A program made the translations under genes and the position numbers. The notes beneath the pieces were generated by a model. That model was not told where the DNA came from. It searched no databases and saw only the letters and a program-made list of their open reading frames with translations. From an uncultured Desulfospira sp. (GTDB taxonomy: Bacteria > Desulfobacterota > Desulfobacteria > Desulfobacterales > Desulfobacteraceae), in NCBI GenBank assembly GCA_963663165.1, contig OY760175.1, forward strand, positions 4,576,001 through 4,640,000: DNA of 64,000 bases, read 5' to 3'. Below are positions 3,278 to 20,214 of the stretch, one piece after another. Each line of letters starts with the position of its first letter. Position 1 is the first letter of the stretch.

Positions 3278-4480
3278 TTAAGAATTTTGTTTTTTATGTC
3301 TGTGAATACCGATTATTCCAAGCAGCCCTGAACCCAACAGCCATACAGTGCCCGGAACAGGCACGGCTGAGGCATTAAGGTTTGCAACCCATGCGAATTG
3401 TCCTGAATCCGTGTCGTATAAATTAACCGCATATCCGGTCAGAACGGTTCCGTCTGCAGACATTCCGCAAACCGCAAGCACCCAGCCGGTCAGGTCTATC
3501 CCGGATTCTGCCAGTAATTCATCAAGAAATACCAGGCCGGAATCTTCGCTATACAGAAAGGATCTGATGATATTGTCTCTGGTCACCCCGGCAATAATTG
3601 ATCCATCAGCTGAAACGGCTGTTGCGGAGCTGTAATCATATCCTTCAGGAAACAGGTCGCCTAAGCCTATCATGCCATTCTCCTCCGTCCAGACAAAGGC
3701 TTCACTTTCACCATTCGGGCCGTCTCCGCTGCTGGCTCCCACCACGACCGACCCATCGGGTGTCATGTCATGCGCTTCACTGTAATTACGACCACCCTCC
3801 AGATCCCCAAGGGATTGGATAACGCCGTTTTTCCAGATCACCGCTTCGGTGCCGCCAGCCTCTCCGGCACCGTTACCGAGAATGATCGATCCGTCGTCGG
3901 AAATCCTTATGGCCTCACCTCTGAGGTCTCCTCCGGACAAATCACCGAGAACCGTCATATTCCCTTGTGCATCCCACATGACCGCCTCTTTTTCATTGTT
4001 TTCATATGTGACCTGACCAACGAGAGTCGAGCCGTCTGATGTCATTCCTTTTACGGTGGCATATTTTACTGAGCCGGATTCCAGTGTAACCGCACCTGTG
4101 GATTCACTCCATTTATAGGCGTCATTGCCAATTCCTCCGGCAATCACCGAACCATCGGAAGAAACAGCATAGGCGACACCTGCATCGGCCAAACCTCCGG
4201 GGATGGTCATGCCGGATGATGAAGACCATTTTACGGGAGCACTCGGCAACATTACAGAGTAATCACTGCTAATATATGTAGCCTGCCCCACCACGGTAGA
4301 GCCGTCGGCTGATACATCCCAACCGGTGGCATTTGTCCATGTTGGAATTATAGCTTCACCGAAGAAGGTGAACTCTGCTGCGTGGGAACTACCGGGCACC
4401 AACACCGTTAAGACTGCAAAAGAAACAGCGCAAGCCAATAAGTGTTTGGTCATAATTTTGACATCTGTTACGGTTTTCAT
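3278..4480 (-). CDS. Secreted HAF-repeat (beta-propeller-like) protein with VPLPA/PEP-CTERM sorting signal
   Basis: Signal peptide, repeated A..VS.DGS.VVG and LGDL.GG units, C-terminus AVPVPGTVWLLGSGLLGIIGIHRHKK. Confidence 0.88.
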   Translation of the reverse strand: MKTVTDVKIMTKHLLACAVSFAVLTVLVPGSSHAAEFTFFGEAIIPTWTNATGWDVSADGSTVVGQATYISSDYSVMLPSAPVKWSSSSGMTIPGGLADAGVAYAVSSDGSVIAGGIGNDAYKWSESTGAVTLESGSVKYATVKGMTSDGSTLVGQVTYENNEKEAVMWDAQGNMTVLGDLSGGDLRGEAIRISDDGSIILGNGAGEAGGTEAVIWKNGVIQSLGDLEGGRNYSEAHDMTPDGSVVVGASSGDGPNGESEAFVWTEENGMIGLGDLFPEGYDYSSATAVSADGSIIAGVTRDNIIRSFLYSEDSGLVFLDELLAESGIDLTGWVLAVCGMSADGTVLTGYAVNLYDTDSGQFAWVANLNASAVPVPGTVWLLGSGLLGIIGIHRHKKQNS

Positions 4481-4558
4481 TTTAAAAAGTTCCTTTCAAA
4501 TTTAAGTTAATTAGATGAGTTGCAAAGTCGCAAACGCGACAATAAAACATCACGCCGC

Positions 4559-5491
4559 TCAATGGCATGATGGTACAGCTTGCTGTTTAATAAATTTTCT
4601 ACGCAGGCACGATAATCCGGCCAAACCTGACCCAAGCAGCCAAATGGTGCCTGGAACGGGCACCGGAGCCGGCGAGGTGGAAAAAACATAAATTGAATCG
4701 CAGTCACTGCCGCCGCTTATGGCATTTCCGGCATTGTCTTTGGCCCCTTGTCCCGTTACCAGGATGTAAGAAAACCACTCCAGCCCTGTTAAAGAGGGGT
4801 CATCATCATCAGGATCCATCCAATTGCCTGCGAAATAAGCGGTAGACATATCAAAAGCGTCCCCGCCGGCCAAACCGGTTGAAGTTGCGGTTCCATTCCC
4901 GTCAAACTCAAGGGGTGCCCCCGGAGAAACCAGGCCGCTGCCGTTGCCGGGGGTGTGGTCAAAGGTCTGGTGGGTGCCGCTGACGCTGGCGTAATAATAC
5001 GGCTCATAGTCAAAAATGGCCGGAAGCGCCCACCAGAGGTTTCCGTCCTGGCTCAGGTATATGGTGCCGGGCTCACTGAAAGACCCCGGTCCGCCATAGG
5101 CATAAAAGGCGTTCCCCCAGACAATACCGTCATAACCGCCCGGATTGGTCGGGTCGTTGTTTACCTGTAAAGTGTTGCCGTATTCATCGGTAAAGCCAAG
5201 AATCACCCAGCTGTCTTCATTGTAGTTCATGGTTACAATGCTGCTGTGAACCGGCGCGTGTCCGTTCTGACTTTCCGGGATGGGACCGAGCAGATTGTGG
5301 GCATCACTCCAGGATCCGTCTGAGATGAAATTGCCGCTGCCGTCTTTATATTGATCCGATGCGTTGATTAACGTATTGGCCCACATGCCTCCCCGTTCCG
5401 CATCTTCTGGCAGATACGTGAGGGCCAGGCTGTTGGTGATGCTTAACAGTAAGAATAATGCTGAAACATGTATTGTTTTCAGAATAGTCAT
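4559..5491 (-). CDS. Secreted acidic Gly-rich protein with VPLPA/PEP-CTERM sorting signal
   Basis: Signal peptide from MTILKT (ATG 5491), C-terminus PVPVPGTIWLLGSGLAGLSCLRRK. Confidence 0.85.
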   Translation of the reverse strand: MTILKTIHVSALFLLLSITNSLALTYLPEDAERGGMWANTLINASDQYKDGSGNFISDGSWSDAHNLLGPIPESQNGHAPVHSSIVTMNYNEDSWVILGFTDEYGNTLQVNNDPTNPGGYDGIVWGNAFYAYGGPGSFSEPGTIYLSQDGNLWWALPAIFDYEPYYYASVSGTHQTFDHTPGNGSGLVSPGAPLEFDGNGTATSTGLAGGDAFDMSTAYFAGNWMDPDDDDPSLTGLEWFSYILVTGQGAKDNAGNAISGGSDCDSIYVFSTSPAPVPVPGTIWLLGSGLAGLSCLRRKFIKQQAVPSCH

Positions 5492-6029
5492 ATCTCTTAT
5501 CCTTTTTGGGGTAAGGACGAGATATAAGGCGGGAATCACGGGATGGTCGGTCCCGGTCAGGGTTGATTAAAGTGCGGATATACGCTAAATTATCAGAATC
5601 TGTTTTATTTAAAAACAGATGTTGCGCCTTCGTTCTCGTCGGTGCATAAATAGAAGGCCTGCAAGGCGTCTTGGCGGAGGCATGCAGGCCTTCTTTCTTT
5701 TATTTGGTTAAAAAATTTGATGGACCGCGCCACCTCCTTATATGATTCAGGAATACGATGAAGAAAACGGCCCGGTTATCTACCCATGCCGGGCTATCCA
5801 TAACATTTCCAGAGCTGCTTCACTGCAAATTTTTTCAACACAATATATACACATTTCAATGTGCCTGTCTCGGATTTATTTGCTGTTTTTTAGGACTTTC
5901 TTGCGGTAAACTATGTTTATTTTTTGAGATTGACGGGTTTTTATGATTTTGGGCTTAATGATGATAGTCCACAAGAAAGGCTGAAGGATGAAAATGCACG
6001 TCCTTCAGCCTAAATCCCTGGCTATCCCC

Positions 6030-6203
6030 GTATTTGAATGAAAACTTGCTTGAGGTACAAGGCGTAACCTAAAGGTCAGAAATCAGGAAAAGTTGCAACC
6101 TTAAGCAACCTTGAAGGTTGTGAGGATTGCAACTTTTCCGTCAACGCTATAGAGGATGATCGGCATTTTGAGCTGAAGCCCCTCTATCGAGCCGTTCAAA
6201 TAC
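6030..6203. repeat. Structured palindromic MITE-like element, copy A
   Basis: Ends GTATTTGAA/TTCAAATAC; internal CAAGGCG..GCAACC-loop-GGTTGTGAGGATT..CAACGC shared with 20807-20950 and 34384-34508. Confidence 0.8.
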
Positions 6204-6778
6204 TACCAGTTTTCGCAGAGCAGCTCGAAATAAGTGTTTGGCTTAACACAGGCCGGGCACTTGTCCGGGGCCGCTGCACCGTGATGAATATACCCGCAGC
6301 TCAAACAGCGCCAGGTCTGTTCCTCTTCCCTGGCAAAGGCCCGGTTTTGGGCAATATTGGCTGCCAGCTGCCGGTACATTTTTTCATGGTGAACTTCCGA
6401 CACACTGATGGCGTTCCAGGTGTCCGCTGCCCGTTGAAACCCTTCCTGTTCGGCAACGGCAGCAAATCCCGGATAAAACTTTGAATGAACCGAGAGTTCA
6501 AGCTCTGCCGCTGAGATCAGGTTGGCCCGGGTATCCAGGATCACCCCGGTCGGAAACGTCCAGGTGCTTTCAAGCTCCCCGCCGTTGAAAAATTTGAAGA
6601 ACCGCAGGGCATGCTCATATTCCTGGGCCGCGGTCTCGTCAAAAATTTTGGCGATCTGGGCATACTTTTCATCCCGGGCCTTCTGGGCAAAAAAATTATA
6701 CCGGGTCCGGGCCTGGGCCTCTAAGGAAAAGGAAATCAGCAGGTTCTTTGCCGTCCGGCTCTCCTTGAATTTTCCCAT
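6203..6778 (-). CDS. rbr: Rubrerythrin
   Basis: EAQARTRY, QEYEHA, SEVHH diiron ligands plus C-terminal WRCLSCGY..CPAC rubredoxin domain. Confidence 0.93.
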   Translation of the reverse strand: MGKFKESRTAKNLLISFSLEAQARTRYNFFAQKARDEKYAQIAKIFDETAAQEYEHALRFFKFFNGGELESTWTFPTGVILDTRANLISAAELELSVHSKFYPGFAAVAEQEGFQRAADTWNAISVSEVHHEKMYRQLAANIAQNRAFAREEEQTWRCLSCGYIHHGAAAPDKCPACVKPNTYFELLCENW

Positions 6779-6781
6779 GGG

Positions 6782-6973
6782 TTAATCCTCGATGATGATG
6801 GCGTCTGCCCCGCATTCATCAGCGGCCTGGCGGACAATGCTTTCCAGGTGTTCGGGAATGGGGTCCATTTTTACCTTGGAGAGCAGATCATCTTCATCAT
6901 ACTCAAATACTTCCGGACAAAGGTTGTTGCAGTTTCTGTCGCCCATGCACTGTTTGGTGATTGTGACTTTCAT
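6782..6973 (-). CDS. Monocluster ferredoxin
   Basis: 63 aa, CMGDRNCNNLCPEVF..AADECGADAI; GGAGG RBS. Confidence 0.9.
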   Translation of the reverse strand: MKVTITKQCMGDRNCNNLCPEVFEYDEDDLLSKVKMDPIPEHLESIVRQAADECGADAIIIED

Positions 6974-7206
6974 TTTTTCCCTCCTGTTTGCTGTTACAAT
7001 TAATCTGCCTGTTCAAAAAAAATTAGGGCCTGCAGTGGAAAAAAGCATTAAGGAAAAATTGCCCAACATTATGGTCTGTCTTTCTTTTATTAAAACCAAC
7101 ATCAAAAAACCGGGCCATTCTGTACAGGACATATAAGTCCTTTCTGCCAAAGCAGGTGTGTGGGGGGATGAAACACCAGAGATTATAACCATCAAACAAT
7201 GGGTTT

Positions 7207-7710
7207 TCAAGGTTCAAACTTGGGTTTGGCTTCTTTTTCCGGGTGGTCGGTCAGGGATACAACCTTGGAATTTTTATGATAACCGGGCCGTTCTATAAAG
7301 TGATCCACCAGTATTTTTACCAAAACCGGGCTCAAATATTGGCGGCCTTGTAAAACGGTTTTAACGGCGTCCATCAATTCCTTGATCAGGTCGGTTTTTA
7401 AAAGATACCCGGATGCCCAGGCATCGAGCATGGCGTTGATGTAAGCCCGTTCCGAATACATGGAAAGGGCCAGGATTTTGATTTCAGGCTTTTGGGAGAG
7501 AATCCTGCGGCAGGCGTGAATCCCGTTTAGTTCCGGCATATGAATATCCATGATTACCAGATCCGGTTCCAAAGACAGGGCCGTTTCAACAGCCTGCTCT
7601 CCGTTTTCCGCCTCCCCGGCCACGGCCATGTTTTTTTGCTGCTGTATCCGGGAAGCGATTTCCTTTCGGGTGATATGATCATCGTCTGCTATGAGAACGG
7701 TGACGGTCAT
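7207..7710 (-). CDS. NarL-type receiver domain protein lacking the LuxR HTH
   Basis: IADDD, MDIHMP, LSMY, YLLK, YLSP, then a short tail with no LT.RE.E HTH motif. Confidence 0.88.
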   Translation of the reverse strand: MTVTVLIADDDHITRKEIASRIQQQKNMAVAGEAENGEQAVETALSLEPDLVIMDIHMPELNGIHACRRILSQKPEIKILALSMYSERAYINAMLDAWASGYLLKTDLIKELMDAVKTVLQGRQYLSPVLVKILVDHFIERPGYHKNSKVVSLTDHPEKEAKPKFEP

Positions 7711-7800
7711 GGAGGCACTCTTTTGTTAATGTATTATGCAACCCAACGGAATGATAGTACATTTTTTCAAAATTATTTAAAAAGTCATGATATATCCGGG

Positions 7801-8439
7801 TTATCGATTTTCTGGAAAGACTTTTCTCCGCCTTACTAGGGCAAGCATGAGAAGACCTGCACCAAGCAGCGAGACTGCCCCTGGGATGGGGACAGATGCG
7901 GCTTTGTACATATGGAAACCCGCACTATCCATTTTCGTGTCCAGGCCCCATGAGCCATTGGTATGAACGACATCCTCTATGCTGTCATCAAGACGATTCT
8001 GCATGACGGTGGGGGTGGTCAGGCCGTTTGGCCACAGCGTTCTTGACGTTCCAACAGCCTGCTCATAGCCATGGTAGCTCGATGAGCTTGTCGGTTCGAA
8101 TAAATTAAAATATTCCGGAGCCCAGGCCGACCCCGCCTCACGTACAGACTCATATACGCCGATAGTCAGCCCGCTAAAACTGGAGTATAACGAGGCGACT
8201 TCTTCCAAAGATGCCCAAATCCATCCACTGAAATCAACACCGCCCACCGTCGTAACAGTGCTGTCTTTGAGCTGACCTGTTGAGGTGTCGTAAATTTGGG
8301 CCAAGTCGTTGTAGCTTAGATTTACCGTATCCGTCAGCTGGCGCCAGTCTTTGCCGTCTGCCATGATGGCATATGCGGTATCCCACAGGCATAATAATAA
8401 AAACAGACCTGAACATGCAGCAAATAATTTTTTTCTCAT
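7801..8439 (-). CDS. Secreted protein with VPLPA/PEP-CTERM sorting signal
   Basis: AGGAG RBS before ATG 8439, signal peptide, C-terminus SVPIPGAVSLLGAGLLMLALVRRRK. Confidence 0.85.
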   Translation of the reverse strand: MRKKLFAACSGLFLLLCLWDTAYAIMADGKDWRQLTDTVNLSYNDLAQIYDTSTGQLKDSTVTTVGGVDFSGWIWASLEEVASLYSSFSGLTIGVYESVREAGSAWAPEYFNLFEPTSSSSYHGYEQAVGTSRTLWPNGLTTPTVMQNRLDDSIEDVVHTNGSWGLDTKMDSAGFHMYKAASVPIPGAVSLLGAGLLMLALVRRRKVFPENR

Positions 8440-8476
8440 TTTTAATCTCCTTTGGTCAGGGATTGATTTTCTCTGG

Positions 8477-9175
8477 TTATAAATGTTCACAAAGCCGTCT
8501 TAGGCCAATGAGGCTGAAAATGCCTGAGCTGAAAAGCCAGGCGGCCGATGGGACGGGGACCGGTGATTGTGATACGGTGAATGATGACGGCAGGTGTAAA
8601 TTGAAATTAACATCTTTGCCGTAAGATTGCTGGACGGCACAGAAATCCCAGCCGTAAGGGATCGTTAAAAAGGCTTCCATCTCTTCTCCGGAAGGTAAAT
8701 CCGTATTATCCAGCGTGCCTCCCGGATTTGATGAATACGTGTCTTTTAATATCCAGCTCATTGATAATGTCGTGTTCGCATCATTGTCTCCGGCGTATGA
8801 GATTGCGCCGTATATCTGTATGCTGTCCGCCCCGTCATATCCCGGTGCGTTGTTATAGACCCTGAATCCGTATTCGGGTTTTGTGCCGGAATCCGAAACG
8901 ATAAACCCGCCCATATTCAGTGTGAATTCAAGAAATTGATATTCCTTGATATAGCCATAATCAGGGCTTGGGTAATGTTCCTGATAGGATGCATTGGTAT
9001 CAAATTTTATAATGCCGGTATATTGATCTGACTGAATCCATGAATAGTCATCCATATCATCTCCCCAGCTGTTGAATGTCCCGGAAAAAGAAATGGTGAC
9101 AATATCGGCTGATGTAGTCCCGACAAAGCCAAGAACCAGAAACAATACCCATAAAAATCCTGTCAGTTTTTTCAT
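8477..9175 (-). CDS. Secreted protein with VPLPA/PEP-CTERM sorting signal
   Basis: Signal peptide MKKLTGF..TSA, C-terminus PVPVPSAAWLFSSGIFSLIGLRR. Confidence 0.87.
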   Translation of the reverse strand: MKKLTGFLWVLFLVLGFVGTTSADIVTISFSGTFNSWGDDMDDYSWIQSDQYTGIIKFDTNASYQEHYPSPDYGYIKEYQFLEFTLNMGGFIVSDSGTKPEYGFRVYNNAPGYDGADSIQIYGAISYAGDNDANTTLSMSWILKDTYSSNPGGTLDNTDLPSGEEMEAFLTIPYGWDFCAVQQSYGKDVNFNLHLPSSFTVSQSPVPVPSAAWLFSSGIFSLIGLRRLCEHL

Positions 9176-9226
9176 GTTTTCCTCATGTATTTTATGTTTG
9201 GGTTAAGATTAAACTGTTGGCACATC

Positions 9227-9886
9227 TCAATGGTGGAGGGAGCTTTTCCCTTTAATTTTTCTGTTATACCCTGCCAAACCCAGCAGACCCGCCCCGAACA
9301 GAAGCAGTGTTGCCGGTTCGGGGACTGGGGATGCGGCAGGGGCAGTGAAACTCCAGGTCTTCACATCTACAAAACGGTCTCCCCCGTATTCAAAAAAACT
9401 GCGCAATTCAGCGTTTTCAAGGGGATCGGCTTTTTGCATATCAGCACTTGTCAGCCCGGTAAAGTGTATGGCATAGCCGGAATATTTTCGGTCATCTTCT
9501 GTGGTTCCAGGATTCCAATCCTGACACATGGTAATCCCGAAATAATCATCGCCATCCCTTTGTTGAACAGTAAACGTATCGTAATAAGCATCATCGCCGT
9601 CGCTGGTTTTGTACCAGTTTTCTTCGGTAATGGCTTCATCGCCAACCCGTGTTAAGGTGGCGTAAAACCAATCGGCTATCGGTGTATCAGTTTTTGTCAC
9701 GTAAATACTGCCATCTTCGTACTTCAGGACCCCGTCTCTATCCGGATCAATTAGAAAACCAATGTCAATTAATCGCCCGTCTTGAGTTGTAATATAAAGG
9801 TCATATTCTATGGGGGTCGCATTAACCATTGTCCCAACCCCCAATAACAAAGCAACAGCAAAACCAATAAAACCTGTTTTCAACAT
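9227..9886 (-). CDS. Secreted PEP-CTERM protein
   Basis: GGAGG RBS, signal peptide, C-terminus PVPEPATLLLFGAGLLGLAGYNRK. Confidence 0.9.
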   Translation of the reverse strand: MLKTGFIGFAVALLLGVGTMVNATPIEYDLYITTQDGRLIDIGFLIDPDRDGVLKYEDGSIYVTKTDTPIADWFYATLTRVGDEAITEENWYKTSDGDDAYYDTFTVQQRDGDDYFGITMCQDWNPGTTEDDRKYSGYAIHFTGLTSADMQKADPLENAELRSFFEYGGDRFVDVKTWSFTAPAASPVPEPATLLLFGAGLLGLAGYNRKIKGKSSLHH

Positions 9887-10245
9887 TTTTCCTCCCTGGA
9901 TTTAACCTTTATTCTCCGCAATTTTATAACCGGGTACCCTTTAAAGAGCCAACACGCTTTAAAAACATTAAAAAATCGTTGCAGCCGTCAGCAAACGAAA
10001 TGTTAATCCGGGTTAACCCGCCTGTTTACGGCTGCTTCTCTTTTTACTTAAGATGCGGCGGACCGGCAATCGGCGAAACCCGGATTTCCCTGTTCAGATT
10101 TTCAGATTTTTGACTTCAGAAATTCTGAGATGTACCGGTCAGAATACGTAACCGATCCGGAAAAAATCGTTTTTTTACGTTAAAAATTCTGATATCAGCA
10201 GGGGGTTACAATGGTTGTCATGCCGGTAGTTGAAACGGGAACGGA

Positions 10246-13200
10246 TTGGGATTGAACCACAGGAGTGTGATGCGATCTGCCGAAGATGAAACAGTTATAC
10301 AGATTCACTGCGGTCCGGACTTTCAAAGTCATATGGTTCAAAGCAGCCGTTCACAGGAGCGGTTTATCCGGGTTGCCGCCGGCATTGACGGCATCCCTCT
10401 GGCGCAGATCGAAAAATTTATGTTTGTCTGCGATCAGTTCAGGCATACCCCTTGTCCCCATTTGCCGCAGCTGTTGTCTTTACAGATAAATGAAGATCCC
10501 CGGAACGGTTTTAAGAAAACAATTTTTCTCACATTTCCGGCGTCAGACGGCATCGCCCTTGAGCAGTATCTGGTGCAAACCCGGCCGGATCTTAAGCAGT
10601 CCCTGCATATGGTTGCCCAGATTTGTGAAGCCGTTAAACGTATTCATGAAACAGGGATTATTGCAGGGCCTCTACACCCTTATAACATTCACATTAAGCC
10701 GGAAACTGGGACGGTTTTTCTTTCTGACTTCGGTCCTTTTTCCATTTACAGCCACCCTGTCCGGGCCTGTGACACGGGAGGCAATGCTAAATGGAATGCG
10801 GCACTTTCTGACTCAAAAATACTGCCGTATATTTCCCCGGAGCTGACAGGCCTCACAAATCGCCTGCCTGATTTTCGTTCCGATTTTTATTCACTGGGTA
10901 TCCTGTTCTATGAGCTGCTTGTTTCTTGCCCTCCGTTTACAGGCGCAAGCCCTCAAAAAATCATCCACAGCCATATGGCAGAAACTCCCCCCAGACTTGA
11001 AAGCCCGGGCTTAGAGATCCCCGAAGTGATTTCAGATATGGTTCAAAGGCTGTTGTCCAAAGATCCTGAAGACCGGTATCAAAGTATACAGGGCATCTCG
11101 TCTGACGTTACGGCATGCCTTAACCATTTAGAACAGCAAGGCCGAATCCCTTTTTTTCCCATTGGGCAAAATGATGCCTGCAGCCGGTTCAAAATAACAG
11201 ACACCATTTACGGCAGGCAAACGGAAACCGCCTTTCTCAATGAGCTGTTTGATAAAACGTTAAAGGGCCGGTCCTCTTTTTTGCTGATCAGGGGATATTC
11301 GGGGATCGGTAAAACCACCCTGGTGCGAAAATTTGAATCTGAACTTCAAACCCGTCAGCACCCCCGGGCAGCGGTTCAATTTATTTCAGGAAAATTTGAT
11401 GTCCATAAACGGCAAAAACCTTATGGCGCATTAATTGATGCCCTGCGGGATTTAATTTTAAATATTTTAACCCGGGATGCGAAAACCATATCCGCATGGC
11501 AGGAAGAAATCACCAGTGATCCCGGGGTAAATGTCAGCCTGATCTGCGAAATGATTCCTGAAGCCCGGCTGATATTCGGCCCCCAGCCGCCCCTTCGCGC
11601 CCTTGGCCCTGAAGAATCCCTAAACCGTTTCTGGCACACCATCACCTCATTCATACGGGCGAACTGCGGTCCCGGCCGCCAGCTCATTCTCTTTTTAGAC
11701 GACCTTCAATGGGTGGACAAGGGGGCTGTCAACCTGCTGGACCGGATTTATGGTCTTGCCGTCCCCCATCTGTTTTTCATCGGTGCATTCCGTGAAAATG
11801 AGGTGGGCCGGCCCCATCCTTTATCCCCTTTGATTTCCCGCCTTGAGCAGGATCACGGGGGTGACCTGTTATCCCTTCAGGCCCTGCCTTTTCGGGATAT
11901 CACCGATCTGGTCCGGGATACGGTCAACCAGGATCAGCAGACCGCTGCCGGCCTTGCAGATCTGCTGAATAAAAAGACCGCCGGCAATCCGTATTATTTA
12001 AAAGAAGTTTTAAATGCCCTGTATGAGGATCATTTGCTTTTTTTTAATGCCGGTGATGGAAAGTGGCATTGGAATCATCAGGAACTTGCCGCCAAAGAAG
12101 TCACCGAGAACGTGGCTGATTTAACATCCATCCGGCTTGGGAAACTCAATGCACAGCTTAAAGAAATCCTGAATTTCGCCGCCTGCCTTGGCCAGGAGTT
12201 TGATCTTTTAGTTCTGTCGACGGCCCTTGATCAGCCGTCTGAAAAAATTCTTCCGGGCATCCTGGAACTTGTACAAAAGAATATTCTCACTGAACAGCCG
12301 GCTAAAGAATCCCGCAGCCGGTACCGGTTTGCCCATGACCGGATTCATCATGCCGCCTACCGTCTCATATCCGTTCCGGAAAGGGAACAGCGCCATTTAA
12401 CCATTGCCCGAAAATGGTACAAAAAAATTAACCCTAAGGAACCGGGCCGGTATATTTTTGAAATAACCACCCATTATAATTACGGCAGGGGGCTGGTGGA
12501 TGATCAAGCCGAAGGACAGATCCTGGTAAAATTAAATCATCTGGCGGCTCAAAAAGCAAAAGCTGAAACCGCATTTGAAAGCCAGTTTCATTACCTGAAC
12601 ATCTGCCTGGAGTTTCTGGAAAAAGATTGCTGGGCAACACAGTATGAACGGGCGCTTTCCTTATATTCAGATGCTGTTGAGGCAGCTTATCTGTGTGGTC
12701 TTTATCCGGAAATGGACCATCTGCTGCAGGTTGTTTTTCACCATGCCAGAAACGACATGGATACGGCAGCTGTAAGAAACACTCAAATTCTGGCTTTTAA
12801 AGCCCGGGACAGGCTTAAGGACGCAATCCGGACCGGGCTTGATACGCTAAAAAAAATGGGGGTTGATTTCCCCCAAAAACCTGCCCGGCATCATGTCCTC
12901 ATTTCCCTTGTAAAAACCTGGCTTGCACTGGCCCGCCACCGGACAGAACATTTCATGGATGTTCAGGTGTTGAGTGATCAAAAAATATCGGTTATCCAGA
13001 AAACATTGTCCGTGCTTGCGTCATCGGCCTATTTTGTATCGCCGGAATTAGGCCTTTTAGTTGCTTTTAAACAGCTGCGCCTCAACCGGTTGCACGGCTT
13101 GACCCAGGACACCCCTGCGACTTTGGCCGGATACGCCGGGGTTGTGCTCAGCGGCATTCTGGAAAATCCGGAAAAAGGATATCAGTTCGGACGGACCGCA

Positions 13201-15429
13201 CTTGCCTTGACGGAAAAGCTCAATGCCCATGAACAAAAGGCAAAAGTGGATGTCATTATTTATGGATTTATCAACCACTGGAAAAGTCATGTTAAGAATG
13301 GTTTTAAGCCGTTGAACCAGGCTTATCGGGCCGGTATTGAAACCGGGGATTTCGAATTTGCCGCCATTGCAAAATACGTCAGGGGCTACCATAGGATTTT
13401 TGCCGGTGAAAATCTTGTGGAACTTGAAAAAGAATTTGCCGAAAATCATTCCATCATCAGGGATCTCAGGCAGATCACCACTTTAAAATACAATGATATC
13501 TATTGGCAGTTTGTCCGCAATCTCATGGGGCGTTGTGATAATCCCATTTTTTTGGAAGGCAGCGCTTATTGTGAAACAGACCGGGAAAAAGCGGTTTGTG
13601 AATTGGACGACCAGAACGGTGCTGCGGTTTATTATCATACCAAGATGATTCTTACCTGCCTTTTTTATGAGAATGAGCAGGCGGTTCAATATCTTGAAAA
13701 ATCAGAGACTGTTTTTGGAAGTGCTGTTGCGACACTGGGTGTGCCCTTGTTGCATTTTTACGGTGCCCTGGCCTGTTTGAGGATATCTGCCGGGGCAGTG
13801 CCGGCGACAGACCGGTCGGAGAACCTGCCGTCAAACAGACAGCTGCGGGAAAAAGCAGGCAGATTTATTAAAAAACTCAAAAAATGGGCCCGTCATGCGC
13901 CCATGAACCATGAGCATAAATATTTGCTGGTAAAGGCCGAACAGGCCCGGATATTAAAAGATGAAAAAAAGGCTGCCATGCTGTATGAAAGGGCCATCGC
14001 CCTGGCAAAAAAACACGGGTACATCAACGAAGAGGCCCTGGCATGGGAACTTTGCGGGGCTTTCTATCATGCCCAGAACCTTCAGGTTCCAGCACGGGTT
14101 TACCTTTCAAAGGCCGTGAACTGCTACCGCCAATGGGGGGCACTGGCAAAAGTTGGCCATTTGAAATCCGTGTATCCGTTTTTGAGCCATCCAACGTTTG
14201 CTGATGATGATACGGCTCCCCTGCCATTGAAACCGTCCGGGCCGGTTGACGTTTCTGCCATTATCAAGGCTTCGGAAGCGATCTTTGGGGAAGTTGTGAT
14301 TCAGCGCCTCATGGAAAAATTAATGGATATTGTCTTTAAAGATGCAGGGGTGAGAAAGGCCGGGCTGGTCCTGGACAACGGGAAGGACTGGATGGTGTCC
14401 GGCCTTGTATCCCTGGATGATTTGCCGTTGTTTTCCCCTGTTCCCCTGTCCCAAAGCCGGGAAGTTCCGGTCAGGATTATCCGGTCGGTACTCAGGACCG
14501 GGAAAAACCTGATGTTTCATCATGCCGGAAAAGAAAAAGCCTTTACACATGACCGTTATTTTCTTGAAAACACGCCGTTATCCGTTCTGGCAATTCCTGT
14601 CCGCCACCAGGGCGTTACCAGCGGTGTTCTCTATCTGGAAAATAACCTGTCTGCCGGTGTGTTTTCGTTAAAGTCCGTGAACGTCCTGGAGACGGTGGCC
14701 AAGATTCTGGCCAACGCCTGGGCCGCAAATAAGGCTGAAAAAGAGATCCTGGCTTATCAGGACCGGCTGCGAGACCTTTCCTCCAGGCTTTTGCTCAGTG
14801 AAGAGCAGGAGCGGCGCAAACTTGCCGTTGCCCTGCATGACCGGATCGGCCATGGCCTGAGCCACGCATTGATGATGCTGGAAAGACTGGGCCAAAAGGC
14901 TGGCCCGGATTCAACCCGGGGGCTTGCTGAAATTCGCGGGATTCTCAAGCGGTCTGTTGAAGACACCCGTTATTTGACATTTGCGTTAAGCCCTCCGGTC
15001 CTTTATGATCTGGGGTTGCCGGCGGCCCTTGACTGGCTGGCCGAACAAACATATAAGACCCATAAGATAAAAGTCAGTTTTTACGATGCCGGACCAGTCC
15101 GGAACGGACCGGTCCGGCAATTGGATGAAAAAATGAGTATTTTAATATTTCAGTGTGTGCGCGAACTTTTGTCCAATGTTGTAAAACACGCTCAGGCAAA
15201 GGAAGCCGCCTTATCCACAGGCTCAAATGAGGCAGAGTTCTGGGTAACGGTTGAAGACCAGGGAAGTGGCTTCGACCCTGATAAAATCGGGTCTGCCGGC
15301 ACCGGAAAAAATGGACTGGGCCTGTTTTCGATCCAGGAAAGGCTGGGCTGCCAGGGCGGATACATGGATGTGGATGCGGCACCGGGAAAGGGTTGCCGGG
15401 TCACGTTGGTGGTGCCGGCAGGGCCGTAG
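10246..15429 (+). CDS. Multidomain Ser/Thr-kinase-like / P-loop ATPase / TPR-like / GAF / HisKA_3 histidine kinase
   Basis: DFG, YISPE, SDFYSLG kinase motifs; GYSGIGKT and FLDDLQW; GVLYLENN GAF; ERRKLAVALHD, NVVKHA, EDQGSGF, GLGLF; start may be 10270. Confidence 0.92.
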   Translation: MGLNHRSVMRSAEDETVIQIHCGPDFQSHMVQSSRSQERFIRVAAGIDGIPLAQIEKFMFVCDQFRHTPCPHLPQLLSLQINEDPRNGFKKTIFLTFPASDGIALEQYLVQTRPDLKQSLHMVAQICEAVKRIHETGIIAGPLHPYNIHIKPETGTVFLSDFGPFSIYSHPVRACDTGGNAKWNAALSDSKILPYISPELTGLTNRLPDFRSDFYSLGILFYELLVSCPPFTGASPQKIIHSHMAETPPRLESPGLEIPEVISDMVQRLLSKDPEDRYQSIQGISSDVTACLNHLEQQGRIPFFPIGQNDACSRFKITDTIYGRQTETAFLNELFDKTLKGRSSFLLIRGYSGIGKTTLVRKFESELQTRQHPRAAVQFISGKFDVHKRQKPYGALIDALRDLILNILTRDAKTISAWQEEITSDPGVNVSLICEMIPEARLIFGPQPPLRALGPEESLNRFWHTITSFIRANCGPGRQLILFLDDLQWVDKGAVNLLDRIYGLAVPHLFFIGAFRENEVGRPHPLSPLISRLEQDHGGDLLSLQALPFRDITDLVRDTVNQDQQTAAGLADLLNKKTAGNPYYLKEVLNALYEDHLLFFNAGDGKWHWNHQELAAKEVTENVADLTSIRLGKLNAQLKEILNFAACLGQEFDLLVLSTALDQPSEKILPGILELVQKNILTEQPAKESRSRYRFAHDRIHHAAYRLISVPEREQRHLTIARKWYKKINPKEPGRYIFEITTHYNYGRGLVDDQAEGQILVKLNHLAAQKAKAETAFESQFHYLNICLEFLEKDCWATQYERALSLYSDAVEAAYLCGLYPEMDHLLQVVFHHARNDMDTAAVRNTQILAFKARDRLKDAIRTGLDTLKKMGVDFPQKPARHHVLISLVKTWLALARHRTEHFMDVQVLSDQKISVIQKTLSVLASSAYFVSPELGLLVAFKQLRLNRLHGLTQDTPATLAGYAGVVLSGILENPEKGYQFGRTALALTEKLNAHEQKAKVDVIIYGFINHWKSHVKNGFKPLNQAYRAGIETGDFEFAAIAKYVRGYHRIFAGENLVELEKEFAENHSIIRDLRQITTLKYNDIYWQFVRNLMGRCDNPIFLEGSAYCETDREKAVCELDDQNGAAVYYHTKMILTCLFYENEQAVQYLEKSETVFGSAVATLGVPLLHFYGALACLRISAGAVPATDRSENLPSNRQLREKAGRFIKKLKKWARHAPMNHEHKYLLVKAEQARILKDEKKAAMLYERAIALAKKHGYINEEALAWELCGAFYHAQNLQVPARVYLSKAVNCYRQWGALAKVGHLKSVYPFLSHPTFADDDTAPLPLKPSGPVDVSAIIKASEAIFGEVVIQRLMEKLMDIVFKDAGVRKAGLVLDNGKDWMVSGLVSLDDLPLFSPVPLSQSREVPVRIIRSVLRTGKNLMFHHAGKEKAFTHDRYFLENTPLSVLAIPVRHQGVTSGVLYLENNLSAGVFSLKSVNVLETVAKILANAWAANKAEKEILAYQDRLRDLSSRLLLSEEQERRKLAVALHDRIGHGLSHALMMLERLGQKAGPDSTRGLAEIRGILKRSVEDTRYLTFALSPPVLYDLGLPAALDWLAEQTYKTHKIKVSFYDAGPVRNGPVRQLDEKMSILIFQCVRELLSNVVKHAQAKEAALSTGSNEAEFWVTVEDQGSGFDPDKIGSAGTGKNGLGLFSIQERLGCQGGYMDVDAAPGKGCRVTLVVPAGP

Positions 15430-15462
15430 CGGCACACTGTTTTTAAGCAAAGGGACATATGC

Positions 15463-16116
15463 ATGAGTATCCGGATTATGATAGCTGATGACCATAAGGT
15501 GACCCGGGAGGGAATTAAGGCTTTGATCCGAAAAGAGCCGGACATGGAAGTCATCTGTGAGGCCGGAGACGGGCAGGAGGCCATTGCCATGGCTGAAGAC
15601 CAGTCTCCCCAAATTATTGTAATGGATATCAGCATGCCGGGGTTGAACGGTATTGACGCGGCCCGGCAGATCAAATCAAAATGGCCCCGGATAAAAATAA
15701 TTGCGTTATCCATGTACTCTGAACGCAGGTATGTTGCCGGCATGCTCGAAGCCGGGGTGTCCGGATATCTGTTGAAAGATGGTTCAGTTAATGAAATTAT
15801 AGACGCCCTTAGGGCCGTTATCCGCGGTAAACCCTACTTAAGCCCGGACGTTGCGAAAGTGGTTTTCATGGATTACGTTCAGGGCAGGCCCATCAGCGAA
15901 ACTTCCACCGTGTCGGTTTTAACGAAAAGAGAACGCGAAATTCTCCAGTTAATTGCAGAAGGATTCTCTTCAATCCAGATTGCATCCAGACTCCATGTTT
16001 CTGAAAAAACCGTATCCACCCACCGGCGCAAAATAATGGAAAAATTAAGCATTTTTAATGTCGCAGGGTTGACCAAATATGCCGTAAGAGAAGGGTTGAC
16101 CTCACTTGAAACATGA
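15463..16116 (+). CDS. NarL/FixJ-family response regulator (REC + LuxR HTH)
   Basis: IADDH, MDISMP, YLLK, LTKREREILQLIAEG..TVSTHRRKIMEKL. Confidence 0.95.
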   Translation: MSIRIMIADDHKVTREGIKALIRKEPDMEVICEAGDGQEAIAMAEDQSPQIIVMDISMPGLNGIDAARQIKSKWPRIKIIALSMYSERRYVAGMLEAGVSGYLLKDGSVNEIIDALRAVIRGKPYLSPDVAKVVFMDYVQGRPISETSTVSVLTKREREILQLIAEGFSSIQIASRLHVSEKTVSTHRRKIMEKLSIFNVAGLTKYAVREGLTSLET

Positions 16117-16159
16117 TGCCGACAGGGGCCAACACCGTACATCGCCAAGGTTAGGAAAA

Positions 16160-17698
16160 GTGGAAACCCCGGTTAATACGGAGTACGGGGAATTTTTGGC
16201 TCAAGCTGAAAGAGCAAAAATTAAAGGTGATGAATATGCAGCCATAAAGTATTATGACCTTGCCGTGACCCATGCCGGGAAAAATAAAGCTTTAAAGGAA
16301 AAAGCGCTGGCCTGTGAGCTGGCCGGCAAATTTTTTCATGAAACCGGCCGCTCCCATGTGGCCGGGGAGTATTTCATAATGGCCCGCAGAGGATACCAAA
16401 AATGCGGGGCACCTGACAGGGCCGCATACCTGTCTGACCATTATCCCCAATATGTCACTTTGCCGGATTCCCATACCTTGCCGGGTGAGGGAAAGCCGGA
16501 TAAGGGCCATCAGGATATGGACCTTGCCGTTTTGATAAATGCGGCCCAGACCATATCCGGGGAGGCGGTCATCAGCCGCCTGATGGATAAACTCATGTCG
16601 GTTGTCCTTGAAAATGCCGGTGCACAAAAAGGATACCTGATTTTAAACAACGGCGGCCAATGGATGGCTGAGGCCAGGGTCGGTATGCCGTCCCTTAAGG
16701 ATTTTGTTCCGGTGCCGCTGGCTGAGGTTAAAGACCTTTCTTCAGGCATGGTCCGGTATGTAAGGCGTACGGGAGAAGATCTGGTGCTGGCCAATGCATT
16801 CAAGGACAGGAGAATGGCGGGCGATTCCTATATCCGGTCTGAAAACCTGAAGTCGGCCCTGTGTCTTCCCATCCGGCACCAGGGGACAGTGACCGGGGTT
16901 TTGTATCTGGAAAACAACCGGTTAGAGGGGGTTTTTACTCCGGAACGGGTGGGTGTTTTTAAAACAGTGGCCAAAATTCTGGCCAATGCCTGGGCACGGA
17001 ATCAGGCCCAAAAGGAAGTCCTGGCTTATCAGGATCAGCTCAGGTCGTTGTCTTCAAAGCTTCTCCTGGTTGAAAAAAGAGAGCGCCGGCAACTGGCACA
17101 GGCGTTACAAGATCAAGTAGGGAAGGCGTTGAGCCGTTCCATAATGAAATTTGAAAAGCTTAAGCAAGACCATAAGCTGGCCCAATGGGATGAATTTACA
17201 GGCATCCGTCAGGTGCTTCATCAGACCATTGAAGATGTCCGGACATTGACATTTGAACTGAGCCCTCCGGTTCTGTATGACCTCGGGCTGTCCGCCGCCC
17301 TGGACTGGCTTGCTGATCAGACCGTTAAAATCCATCAAGTGGATGTGAGATTTTTTGACCGGGGGCTGTGCCGTTCCATAGAAGAAAACCTCCGGGTTTT
17401 GATGTTTCAGTCCGTTCGTGAGCTGATGTTTAATATGGTGAAACATGCCGGGGCAAAGACAGCCCGGTTGACGGCAGGTATGGAAGGAGACGATTTATGG
17501 GTTGTCCTGGAAGACGATGGAACCGGCTTTGATCCGGATCAAATCAATCCTCAGGACGGTAATGAGGGAGGCTTTGGCCTGTTCTCCATTCAGGAGCGGC
17601 TCCGCAGCCATGGCGGCCATATGGATATAACCACTTCACCGGGAAAGGGTACCCATATTAAGCTGGTGTTGCCGGCAACCGCACCACAGGCGTTTTAA
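16160..17698 (+). CDS. TPR-GAF-HisKA_3-HATPase protein, paralogue of the C-terminus of 10246-15429, phospho-His replaced by Gln
   Basis: Colinear similarity (ALACELAG, GVLYLENN, VAKILANAWA, LSPPVLYDLGL); ERRQLAQALQD instead of ALHD; GTG 16160 chosen, track start 16106. Confidence 0.88.
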   Translation: METPVNTEYGEFLAQAERAKIKGDEYAAIKYYDLAVTHAGKNKALKEKALACELAGKFFHETGRSHVAGEYFIMARRGYQKCGAPDRAAYLSDHYPQYVTLPDSHTLPGEGKPDKGHQDMDLAVLINAAQTISGEAVISRLMDKLMSVVLENAGAQKGYLILNNGGQWMAEARVGMPSLKDFVPVPLAEVKDLSSGMVRYVRRTGEDLVLANAFKDRRMAGDSYIRSENLKSALCLPIRHQGTVTGVLYLENNRLEGVFTPERVGVFKTVAKILANAWARNQAQKEVLAYQDQLRSLSSKLLLVEKRERRQLAQALQDQVGKALSRSIMKFEKLKQDHKLAQWDEFTGIRQVLHQTIEDVRTLTFELSPPVLYDLGLSAALDWLADQTVKIHQVDVRFFDRGLCRSIEENLRVLMFQSVRELMFNMVKHAGAKTARLTAGMEGDDLWVVLEDDGTGFDPDQINPQDGNEGGFGLFSIQERLRSHGGHMDITTSPGKGTHIKLVLPATAPQAF

Positions 17699-19419: not shown

Positions 19420-20214
19420 ATGAATATCAACTCTCACCTTCTCGGGGATCATTTAAAACACTTGGGAATTATCACGGATCAGCAGTTGGCAGAGGCCTTG
19501 AAAATACAAGAGGACCTTTTAAAAGGGGCGGCCATGGAATCCGGGGTAAGCCCCAGCGAACTGGTGACCCGGACCAGGGGAAAGGACCGGGAGGTTCCCC
19601 TGCTCGGCCAGATCCTCCTGGAGAAAAACTATATTACCCAGGATATCCTGTCGCCGGTTCTGGCCATGCAAAATCGCCAGGTCAGGGAATTGAGGATGCT
19701 GAGCAGTGAAAAACTCTCCCTGGTCATTCAGATCGGGTTTCTGATCAACTCCACCCACAGCCTGGTAGAGGTTTTGTCATTGATCATGAAATATGCCAAT
19801 ATCGTGACCAGTGCCGAGGCCAGCACCCTGATGCTGATAGATGAGACCACAGGAGAACTGGTGTTCAGTGTCCCCACAGGGCCTGAAGCCGACAAACTCA
19901 AGGACGTCAGGATTCCCAAGGGGGCCGGTGTGGCCGGCTGGGTGGCCCAGAATCAGCAGCATGTCATTGTGGCCGATGCTGAAAAAGATTCCCGGTTCTT
20001 TTCCGATGTGGACAGTATGACCGGTGCACAGACCAAATCCATTCTCTGTGTCCCCTTAAGGTCCAAAAGAAAAATCATCGGGGTCCTGGAGGTGATGAAC
20101 AAGGAAAACGATGAGGTGTTTACAGAGGATGACGCCCTGCTGCTGAACCTGTTCTCCCATCAGGCCGCCATTGCCATTGAAAATGCCATGTTGTTTAGCG
20201 GCCGCCGTAAATAG
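19420..20214 (+). CDS. GAF domain protein with two N-terminal MshEN/GspE-N-like motifs
   Basis: LLGDHL..LGIIT..QL.EAL..Q and LLGQILLEKNYIT...L..VL.MQ; GAF GVAGWVA..SILCVPL..AAIAIENA; no output domain. Confidence 0.8.
   Translation: MNINSHLLGDHLKHLGIITDQQLAEALKIQEDLLKGAAMESGVSPSELVTRTRGKDREVPLLGQILLEKNYITQDILSPVLAMQNRQVRELRMLSSEKLSLVIQIGFLINSTHSLVEVLSLIMKYANIVTSAEASTLMLIDETTGELVFSVPTGPEADKLKDVRIPKGAGVAGWVAQNQQHVIVADAEKDSRFFSDVDSMTGAQTKSILCVPLRSKRKIIGVLEVMNKENDEVFTEDDALLLNLFSHQAAIAIENAMLFSGRRK

Follow-up and report, generated by a model that had tools for sequence, protein, structure and literature searches.

We analysed a 64,000-nucleotide stretch of DNA (the window) from an uncultured Desulfospira sp. 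(assembly GCA_963663165.1, contig OY760175.1, positions 4,576,001 to 4,640,000), in which a sensor-kinase locus lies beside a divergent cluster of PEP-CTERM genes. The source genome (G000) is a single 6.74-Mb contig, and a same-genus sister genome (G001) served for comparison. A preliminary description had placed four signalling and three surface-protein open reading frames (ORFs) here, and all seven are found where it put them. The features of the locus are as follows.

10246..15429, plus strand: BIG, a big cytoplasmic sensor kinase of 1727 aa (Pfam); a better start is probably ATG 10270
15463..16116, plus strand: NarL/LuxR response regulator with recognition helix TVSTHRR, complete as described, since Pfam Response_reg and GerE both match
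16106..17698, plus strand: short kinase twin of BIG (HK2), 530 aa; alternative start GTG 16160
17108..17110, plus strand: the twin's phospho-acceptor codon, CAA (Gln) here and CAC (His) in G001
10094..10128, no strand: candidate NarL operator, a palindrome pair, with a weaker third site at 10139-10151
9227..9886, minus strand: PEP-CTERM protein 1, first gene of the divergent cluster (Pfam PF07589)
8477..9175, minus strand: PEP-CTERM-type exported protein 2, VPVP tail (genome-trained hidden Markov model, HMM)
7801..8439, minus strand: PEP-CTERM-type exported protein 3; probable ATG 8439, ORF listed from GTG 8490
7207..7710, minus strand: NarL-type receiver (REC) without helix-turn-helix (HTH), Pfam Response_reg alone
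7182..7210, minus strand: sigma-70-like promoter, 11/12 consensus, facing ferredoxin and rubrerythrin genes

The Pfam domains of BIG are Pkinase (residues 90-281), AAA_16 (321-504), GAF (1353-1491), HisKA_3 (1522-1585) and HATPase_c (1633-1725). Its HisKA_3 match scores 32.4 bits against a cut-off of 24, His1531 is present in the intact ALHD H-box first described (codon 14836, CAT), and the N, G1 and G2 boxes are intact; BIG thus has both the phospho-His DHp and the boxed HATPase_c domain that define a HisKA_3 histidine kinase. The kinase, ATPase, GAF and HisKA_3 parts of the domain string originally proposed hold up, while the TPR part has no Pfam match and is a mere label for BIG's helical middle. 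Overlooked at first was that the catalytic loop of the Ser/Thr-kinase domain, which reads AGPLHPYN, has neither its Asp nor its Lys. Such degeneracy is common in the family, with Asp in the catalytic-loop column of only 21 of 85 full-length relatives. Pairwise against G001, as for all such values below, the ratio of non-synonymous to synonymous substitution rates (dN/dS) is 0.220 for BIG, 0.211 for the window NarL (95% identical to its orthologue) and 0.04-0.21 for seven further neighbouring genes.

The arrangement has a paralogue in the same genome. At G000 2868959-2878906 a cassette repeats the order of kinase (1662 aa), NarL and second kinase (1439 aa), and three PEP-CTERM genes follow directly downstream, to 2881601 (L032, L034, L202), behind the same palindrome pair. 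Both of its kinases carry the His, the second has no Ser/Thr-kinase domain, and the cassette has no match in G001. A third NarL, an orphan at G000 5635742, abuts a PEP-CTERM gene having a sigma-54-like promoter; the kinase of this third locus is a 345-bp remnant in G000 (5641020-5641354) and is broken by a stop, a frameshift and an internal deletion in G001 (P0004; L023 12351-15975). All three NarLs of this group in G000 sit at loci touching a PEP-CTERM gene, although just 3.0% of G000 lies within 1 kb of one. Elsewhere the kinase family occurs as a simple pair, with one such kinase per locus. We compared 12 full-architecture loci of 97 scanned and 20 loci taken from the 22 genomes that matched among 400 of the order, not all of them independent. 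A NarL was called beside the kinase in 12/12 and 16/20, and neither a twin nor a lone receiver was present at any of these 12 and 20, and the conserved four-gene linkage for which the preliminary description proposed a synteny search was not found there. One of these loci has two IPTL-CTERM genes downstream (L026 13706-16825), and four other family kinases stand beside C-terminally tagged exported proteins (L120 1281-4616, L121 3087-5648, L238 2247-4775, L239 11254-13731); these neighbours are C25-peptidase-like or others, with a Gly-rich GGCF tail whose tag name is unconfirmed.

In the part of PMC2176072 that covers them, the cbSTKIII dual kinases of cyanobacteria (HstK/Alr2258, Alr0709-Alr0710) resemble BIG in combining an N-terminal Ser/Thr-kinase domain, GAF and a C-terminal His-kinase in one large chain, and they resemble the locus in that tandem paralogues occur. 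Unlike them, BIG has HisKA_3 rather than HisKA, has a NarL partner and lacks the catalytic Asp and Lys of its Ser/Thr-kinase domain, and the second copy here comprises only the last third, with H-box residues lost (PMC2176072).

Upstream of the first PEP-CTERM gene we found a candidate operator that the preliminary description had passed over. Its main site, TCAGAA-N-TTCTGA at 10116-10128, or TCAGA-N3-TCTGA in shorter form, lies 22 bp from a partner with one mismatch at 10094-10106. The exact palindrome has 10 copies in G000; 8 of them belong to one identical repeat and were excluded ahead of the count, and the other 2 are in the window and at the paralogous cassette, where the copy precedes the following PEP-CTERM gene by 140 bp. 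(The repeat itself, at G000 1419801 and seven other places (L201) and also in G001, has an ORF start that contains the exact palindrome.) Palindrome pairs with up to 2 mismatches and spacings of 14-39 occur only twice in the 6.74 Mb of G000, both at a spacing of 22 and both upstream of PEP-CTERM genes, whose 20-400 bp upstream regions account for 0.5% of G000. Aligned in the orientation of the PEP-CTERM genes, the two promoters match over 62 bp at 73%. The main site is unchanged in G001, with two changes in the left half of the partner. At an unrelated metagenome locus (L149), a different HisKA_3 sensor accompanies a NarL with the same TVSTHRR helix, and the motif with its 22-bp partner flanks the operon on both sides (3985-4011, 8080-8114), one copy being 27/28 identical to the window. 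Of 3000 resamples, 0, 1 and 0 attained the scores of these pairs, that at the paralogue being among those never attained. The L149 arrangement suggests that the palindrome could be a general binding site for NarLs with this helix. The neighbours of the L149 operon are a peptide ABC transporter and a peptidase. RcsB, a NarL-family protein, binds TN(G/A)GA-N4-TC(T/C)NA according to the cited portion of PMC7913699; the candidate operator shares the NarL-family HTH context and the half-site TN(G/A)GA, and differs in its spacer of 3 rather than 4 and in its tandem pair at 22 bp (PMC7913699). We consider it likely that the window NarL binds the palindromes. The regulon would be local, with the pair at 2/70 PEP-CTERM promoters, and the operator pattern recurred in none of the other genomes among 160 family genomes.

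The second kinase gene was described as a disabled duplicate of the end of BIG, and in this genome its H-box does read ALQD, with CAA at 17108 encoding Gln335. Sequencing error was rejected on the contigs of run X1, which show no other letter at this codon at a depth of 162; they probably stem from the same source DNA as the window and hence give no independent check. The N, G1, G2 and G3 ATP-binding boxes are kept, as claimed. The twin does align with BIG residues 1219-1725; at 45% identity, however, it is an old paralogue, and a recent duplication is ruled out, the second kinase of the paralogous cassette being closer (51-52%). It comprises the end of the helical region, GAF, a HisKA_3-like DHp with Gln335 and Lys340, and the ATP-binding domain. 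The syntenic orthologue in G001 (P0001) is 92.6% identical and has His, CAC and CAA being one base apart, and run X4 contigs likewise read C at 17110. The claim that Gln is a fixed loss thus falls, on the very observation that its proponent had named as contrary to it. A gene conversion restoring His in G001 was rejected, the codon context differing from that of BIG, and the insertion that run X7, otherwise equal to G001, shows at the His codon has a GATC-GATC junction that we read as a ligation-type library artefact.

Gln also occurs in P0002, a relative 64% identical to the twin and known as a 605-aa form. For P0002 and for P0125, a BIG orthologue with His, the only ENA contig listed is 349,171 bases long, so the two presumably share it; the surrounding DNA was not found in our genome or metagenome scans. 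Among 293 aligned H-boxes, a redundant set, 290 have His, 2 (the twin and P0002) have Gln, and 1 is a misaligned other domain. The twin, P0001 and P0002 form a clade (support 100/100) that is present in only 2/161 family genomes; Gln occurs in 2/3 of its members and intact ATP boxes in 3/3. The pattern could have arisen through two separate losses or through a single loss followed by a reversion. Five residues after the His, 275/293 H-boxes have Gln or His, and the three clade members have Lys, Lys and Asn, the His-bearing P0001 included. This is the phosphatase position (DxxxQ) of NarX and DesK in the relevant parts of PMC3510030 and PMC5231405. The selection check proposed for the H-to-Q paralogue gave purifying selection: dN/dS is 0.228 (0.23) overall, like BIG and NarL, and 0.16 in DHp and CA together. 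Between the twin and P0002, GAF is identical at 133/164 positions and DHp at 52/94 (p 1e-5); between BIG and P0125 the corresponding values are 118/164 and 68/94 (p 1.0).

Because the twin is under selection, with its GAF kept best and its DHp relaxed, its sensor and ATP domains appear to matter and its H-box chemistry does not. As to what defines a pseudo-histidine kinase, the acceptor His is absent and selection and intact motifs are present; the loss is not fixed in orthologues. Judged by these comparisons, the His appears dispensable rather than fixed as Gln, and the twin is likely a helper subunit, not a fixed dead kinase. HisKA_3 dimers phosphorylate in trans. We lean towards a model in which the twin would pair with BIG via DHp, lending a second GAF and possibly an ATP-binding domain, and would neither accept phosphate nor dephosphorylate NarL.

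Other systems provide examples of non-catalytic kinase partners. In the part of PMC9491836 concerned, the paralogous kinases HrrS and a ChrS pseudokinase of Corynebacterium glutamicum heterodimerise, and the inactive member of the pair increases regulator output while its own His goes unused, as we propose for the twin. The ChrS variant was lab-evolved and has lost its ATP-binding domain; the twin, by contrast, is natural and cytoplasmic, and has kept that domain and lost the His (PMC9491836). FasBCA of group A Streptococcus is likewise an operon with two kinase-like genes and one regulator, in which, on the account given in part of PMC12675982, the FasC His is needed, the FasC kinase domain is dispensable and a heterodimer is proposed. 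It differs in its membrane proteins, ComE-like regulator and sRNA target, and the cited portion does not show the His of FasB to be absent, in contrast to the twin (PMC12675982). DivL and RetS are kinase-like and act on a partner kinase without their own phosphorylation, again as proposed here, in the passages of PMC9491836 and PMC11481889 that treat them. Their architectures are unrelated to that of the twin, and their non-catalytic role is experimental, while that of the twin is deduced and its His is polymorphic between species (PMC9491836, PMC11481889).

Taken together, these data are compatible with the following scheme. A cytoplasmic signal would activate BIG, and BIG would phosphorylate the adjacent NarL, a transfer we infer from family knowledge, an adjacent HisKA_3/NarL pair being present in most family loci. 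NarL dimers would then bind the phased palindromes at 10094-10128 and induce the three PEP-CTERM genes. The twin would join BIG as a GAF-bearing subunit, a role that needs neither a His nor a phosphatase residue, and the receiver would be peripheral in the circuit. We prefer this reading as a whole, tentatively, and rate it just short of an even chance. The candidate operator is its firmest new result, the His-optional twin its most curious, and the feedback sink first proposed (see below) the weakest element of the locus.

A number of points weigh against it. For the twin, the His in G001 means that two changes are needed whichever direction the site evolved, and trees in which the two Gln proteins group to the exclusion of P0001 are rejected (p-AU 0.006). 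The clade is known from three members only, P0002, in its 605-aa form, may be what is left of a broken gene, like P0004 in G001, and no NarL from the 349,171-base contig is among the best 120 NarL matches. Pairwise dN/dS averages both lineages and is blind to a recent loss. For the operator, the motif was picked post hoc, having come to notice in the window, and the two G000 promoters may share ancestry. Among the other NarLs with an STHR helix (5 of 35), the exact site lies within 400 bp downstream for 1/5. The motif occurs at 0/20 of the family loci from other genomes, most of which have differing helices; the half-plus-full pattern occurs in 9/400 genomes of the order, none beside a NarL; and no operator within 2 mismatches was found at the third NarL locus. 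Finally, the operator is also 120-150 bp upstream of BIG and may for that reason be autoregulatory.

The strongest competitor is that the cassette is in decay: the twin would be a truncated second kinase, active in G001 and knocked out independently in G000 and in the genome of P0002, with the receiver as a relic. We regard this as possible, if less probable. The His one base away in the closest orthologue fits it, as do the His residues in both kinases of the paralogous cassette, the absence of that cassette from G001, the instability of the family at the third locus (broken kinase in G001, remnant in G000) and three changes private to the G000 receiver at invariant or near-invariant sites, given below. 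Decay is harder to reconcile with two His losses that both lead to Gln in genes whose frames are still open and whose ATP boxes are undamaged, or with purifying selection on the twin as strong as on BIG. The His+5 residue, moreover, is lost in all three copies, including the one that bears His, and the twin's GAF is better kept than that in BIG's lineage, whereas its DHp is relaxed.

The receiver was proposed as a feedback sink with intact phosphorylation residues and no HTH, and both structural statements are borne out: D9, D10, D55, S83 and K105 are present, Pfam matches Response_reg only, and no HTH remnant follows downstream in three frames. With its acidic pair, phospho-Asp, Ser/Thr and Lys and no output domain, it has the makeup of a single-domain response regulator. 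Its identity is 61% with the third NarL (5635742), with which it groups (tree support 99), and 43% with the window NarL; by descent it is thus best described as a truncated copy of a different NarL, 5635742. A recent, strain-level truncation, which had been named among the possible refutations, does not apply, the stop being common to G001. No receiver was found outside G000 and G001 (3 hits among 4242 candidates). The dN/dS is 0.12 in the core and 0.62 in the tail. Gly17, which is Gly in 123/123 relatives, is Glu in both G000 and G001, and H11D, L21R and G98W are private to G000, at invariant or near-invariant sites, so that a cognate-like kinase-docking helix is not what we see. The kinase-docking pocket of DesR is Leu13, Ala16, Leu17 and Leu20 in the section of PMC5231405 that deals with it. 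From the Asp54/Asp55 offset these would map to receiver positions 14, 17, 18 and 21, and the receiver aligns ungapped to VraR and NarL; Glu17 and, in G000, Arg21 would then occupy helix-1 docking positions. The receiver's stop codon falls within the -35 hexamer of the promoter at 7182..7210, whose -35 and near -10 are also in G001, and because of this overlap the shared end of the receiver is explainable by the next promoter. A gap of 90 bp without a terminator-like match separates the receiver from the third PEP-CTERM gene, and co-transcription is possible; no operator within 2 mismatches precedes the receiver. It is probably a side component, kept for some time and eroding in G000, and may have had an earlier or other role. 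We think it unlikely to serve BIG as a dedicated feedback sink.

The circuit of the preliminary description, in which a dedicated Gln pseudokinase modulates BIG and a co-expressed receiver drains its phosphate as negative feedback, is accordingly improbable as a whole in our estimate. It can draw on the Gln in 2/3 clade members, the intact phospho-site, shared stop and low core dN/dS of the receiver, and the short terminator-free gap. Set against these are the His of the G001 twin, a receiver that is known from two genomes only and whose parent, a different NarL, has a broken kinase or none, the residues Glu17 and Arg21 at positions that map to the DesR pocket (PMC5231405, in part), and a -35 overlap that can itself account for the receiver's conservation.

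The three PEP-CTERM genes are confirmed, one by Pfam and two by a VPxP-hydrophobic-basic tail and a genome-trained HMM. The 9227-9886 product scores 32.1 bits with PF07589 (cut-off 20.7) and exceeds the TIGR02595 cut-off. The 7801-8490 product (VPIP tail, 34.9 bits) and the 8477-9175 product (VPVP tail, 39.0 bits) have no Pfam match at E 0.01; the former has weak NCBIfam PEP-CTERM matches and is 85% identical to its G001 orthologue, and the latter has no NCBIfam match and is 93% identical to its own. G000 has 86 PEP-CTERM-like genes by this HMM, or 69 by a stricter pattern, mostly of VPVP type, and 2 exosortase (TIGR02602) matches over cut-off. PrsK (TIGR02916) and PrsR (TIGR02915) had 0 matches over cut-off in G000, with no control genome over cut-off either, and a PrsK search of 41 family genomes gave no match, controls included.

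Known control of PEP-CTERM genes is by PrsK/PrsR and sigma-54 (PMC1569441 and PMC3333781, in the portions concerned). The control proposed for this locus is likewise two-component and via an upstream site, and differs in its NarL-type regulator and in its 22-bp-spaced palindrome pair at 2/70 PEP-CTERM promoters (PMC1569441, PMC3333781). A sigma-54-like match is present in 10/70 PEP-CTERM promoters of G000. One such GG-N10-GC candidate near 9917-9932 was discarded, its GC being altered in G001, and a k-mer test of 70 promoters for a genome-wide PEP-CTERM motif yielded Shine-Dalgarno words alone. A search confined to the open-access literature turned up neither a description of this module nor one of PEP-CTERM control by a NarL-type regulator.

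The linkage to PEP-CTERM genes that was first pointed out is stronger than originally presented, through the palindrome pair shared by two cassettes. A PEP-CTERM gene occurs at 1/20 family loci from other genomes, 4 kb off (L248). That the adjacency is incidental, the palindromes autoregulating the kinase operon or being inherited DNA amid many such genes and variable regions, seems to us quite unlikely: it would suit the 86 PEP-CTERM-like genes (9.9% of G000 lies within 5 kb of one), the absence from the G001 locus of those at 3278-5539 and the 1/20 loci just mentioned, but at the paralogous cassette the pair is downstream of the kinases and upstream of a PEP-CTERM gene only, and the two promoters align in the direction of that gene.

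More speculatively, and with considerable doubt, a sulfate-reducer family of cytoplasmic sensors may have gained, in one lineage, a heterodimerising GAF helper with a one-base flip between kinase and pseudokinase in sister species, and via NarL and 22-bp-phased palindromes may run small PEP-CTERM cassettes without PrsK/PrsR or sigma-54. The 2006 PEP-CTERM paper, in the part cited, states that additional regulators and DNA motifs have yet to be discovered for genes without a PrsR/sigma-54 site (PMC1569441), and the locus offers a named regulator and a specific candidate operator in a genome with 86 PEP-CTERM-like genes and no PrsK/PrsR match over cut-off. The two natural orthologues, one with His and the other with Gln at the phospho-acceptor position, offer a ready-made test case for how a kinase paralogue becomes a non-catalytic subunit. 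The scope is narrow: the known twins number three and the PEP-CTERM promoters two, and kinase partners that heterodimerise or lack the His have been described before in other systems.

Among the neighbouring features, the ferredoxin (6782-6973) and rubrerythrin (6203-6778) genes sit behind the near-consensus sigma-70 promoter that overlaps the receiver's end. Two more PEP-CTERM genes, one with HAF repeats, lie at window 3278-5539, and other genes take their place in G001. G001 carries inserted short high-copy repeats both between the PEP-CTERM genes and downstream of the twin (L022 ~3750-3865 and 13106-13200). At window 19420-20214, a stand-alone GAF protein, 96% conserved in G001, lies beside a multiheme cytochrome and a NiFe hydrogenase; its N-terminus has a match, below cut-off, to an MshE-related c-di-GMP-binding motif (NF053729).

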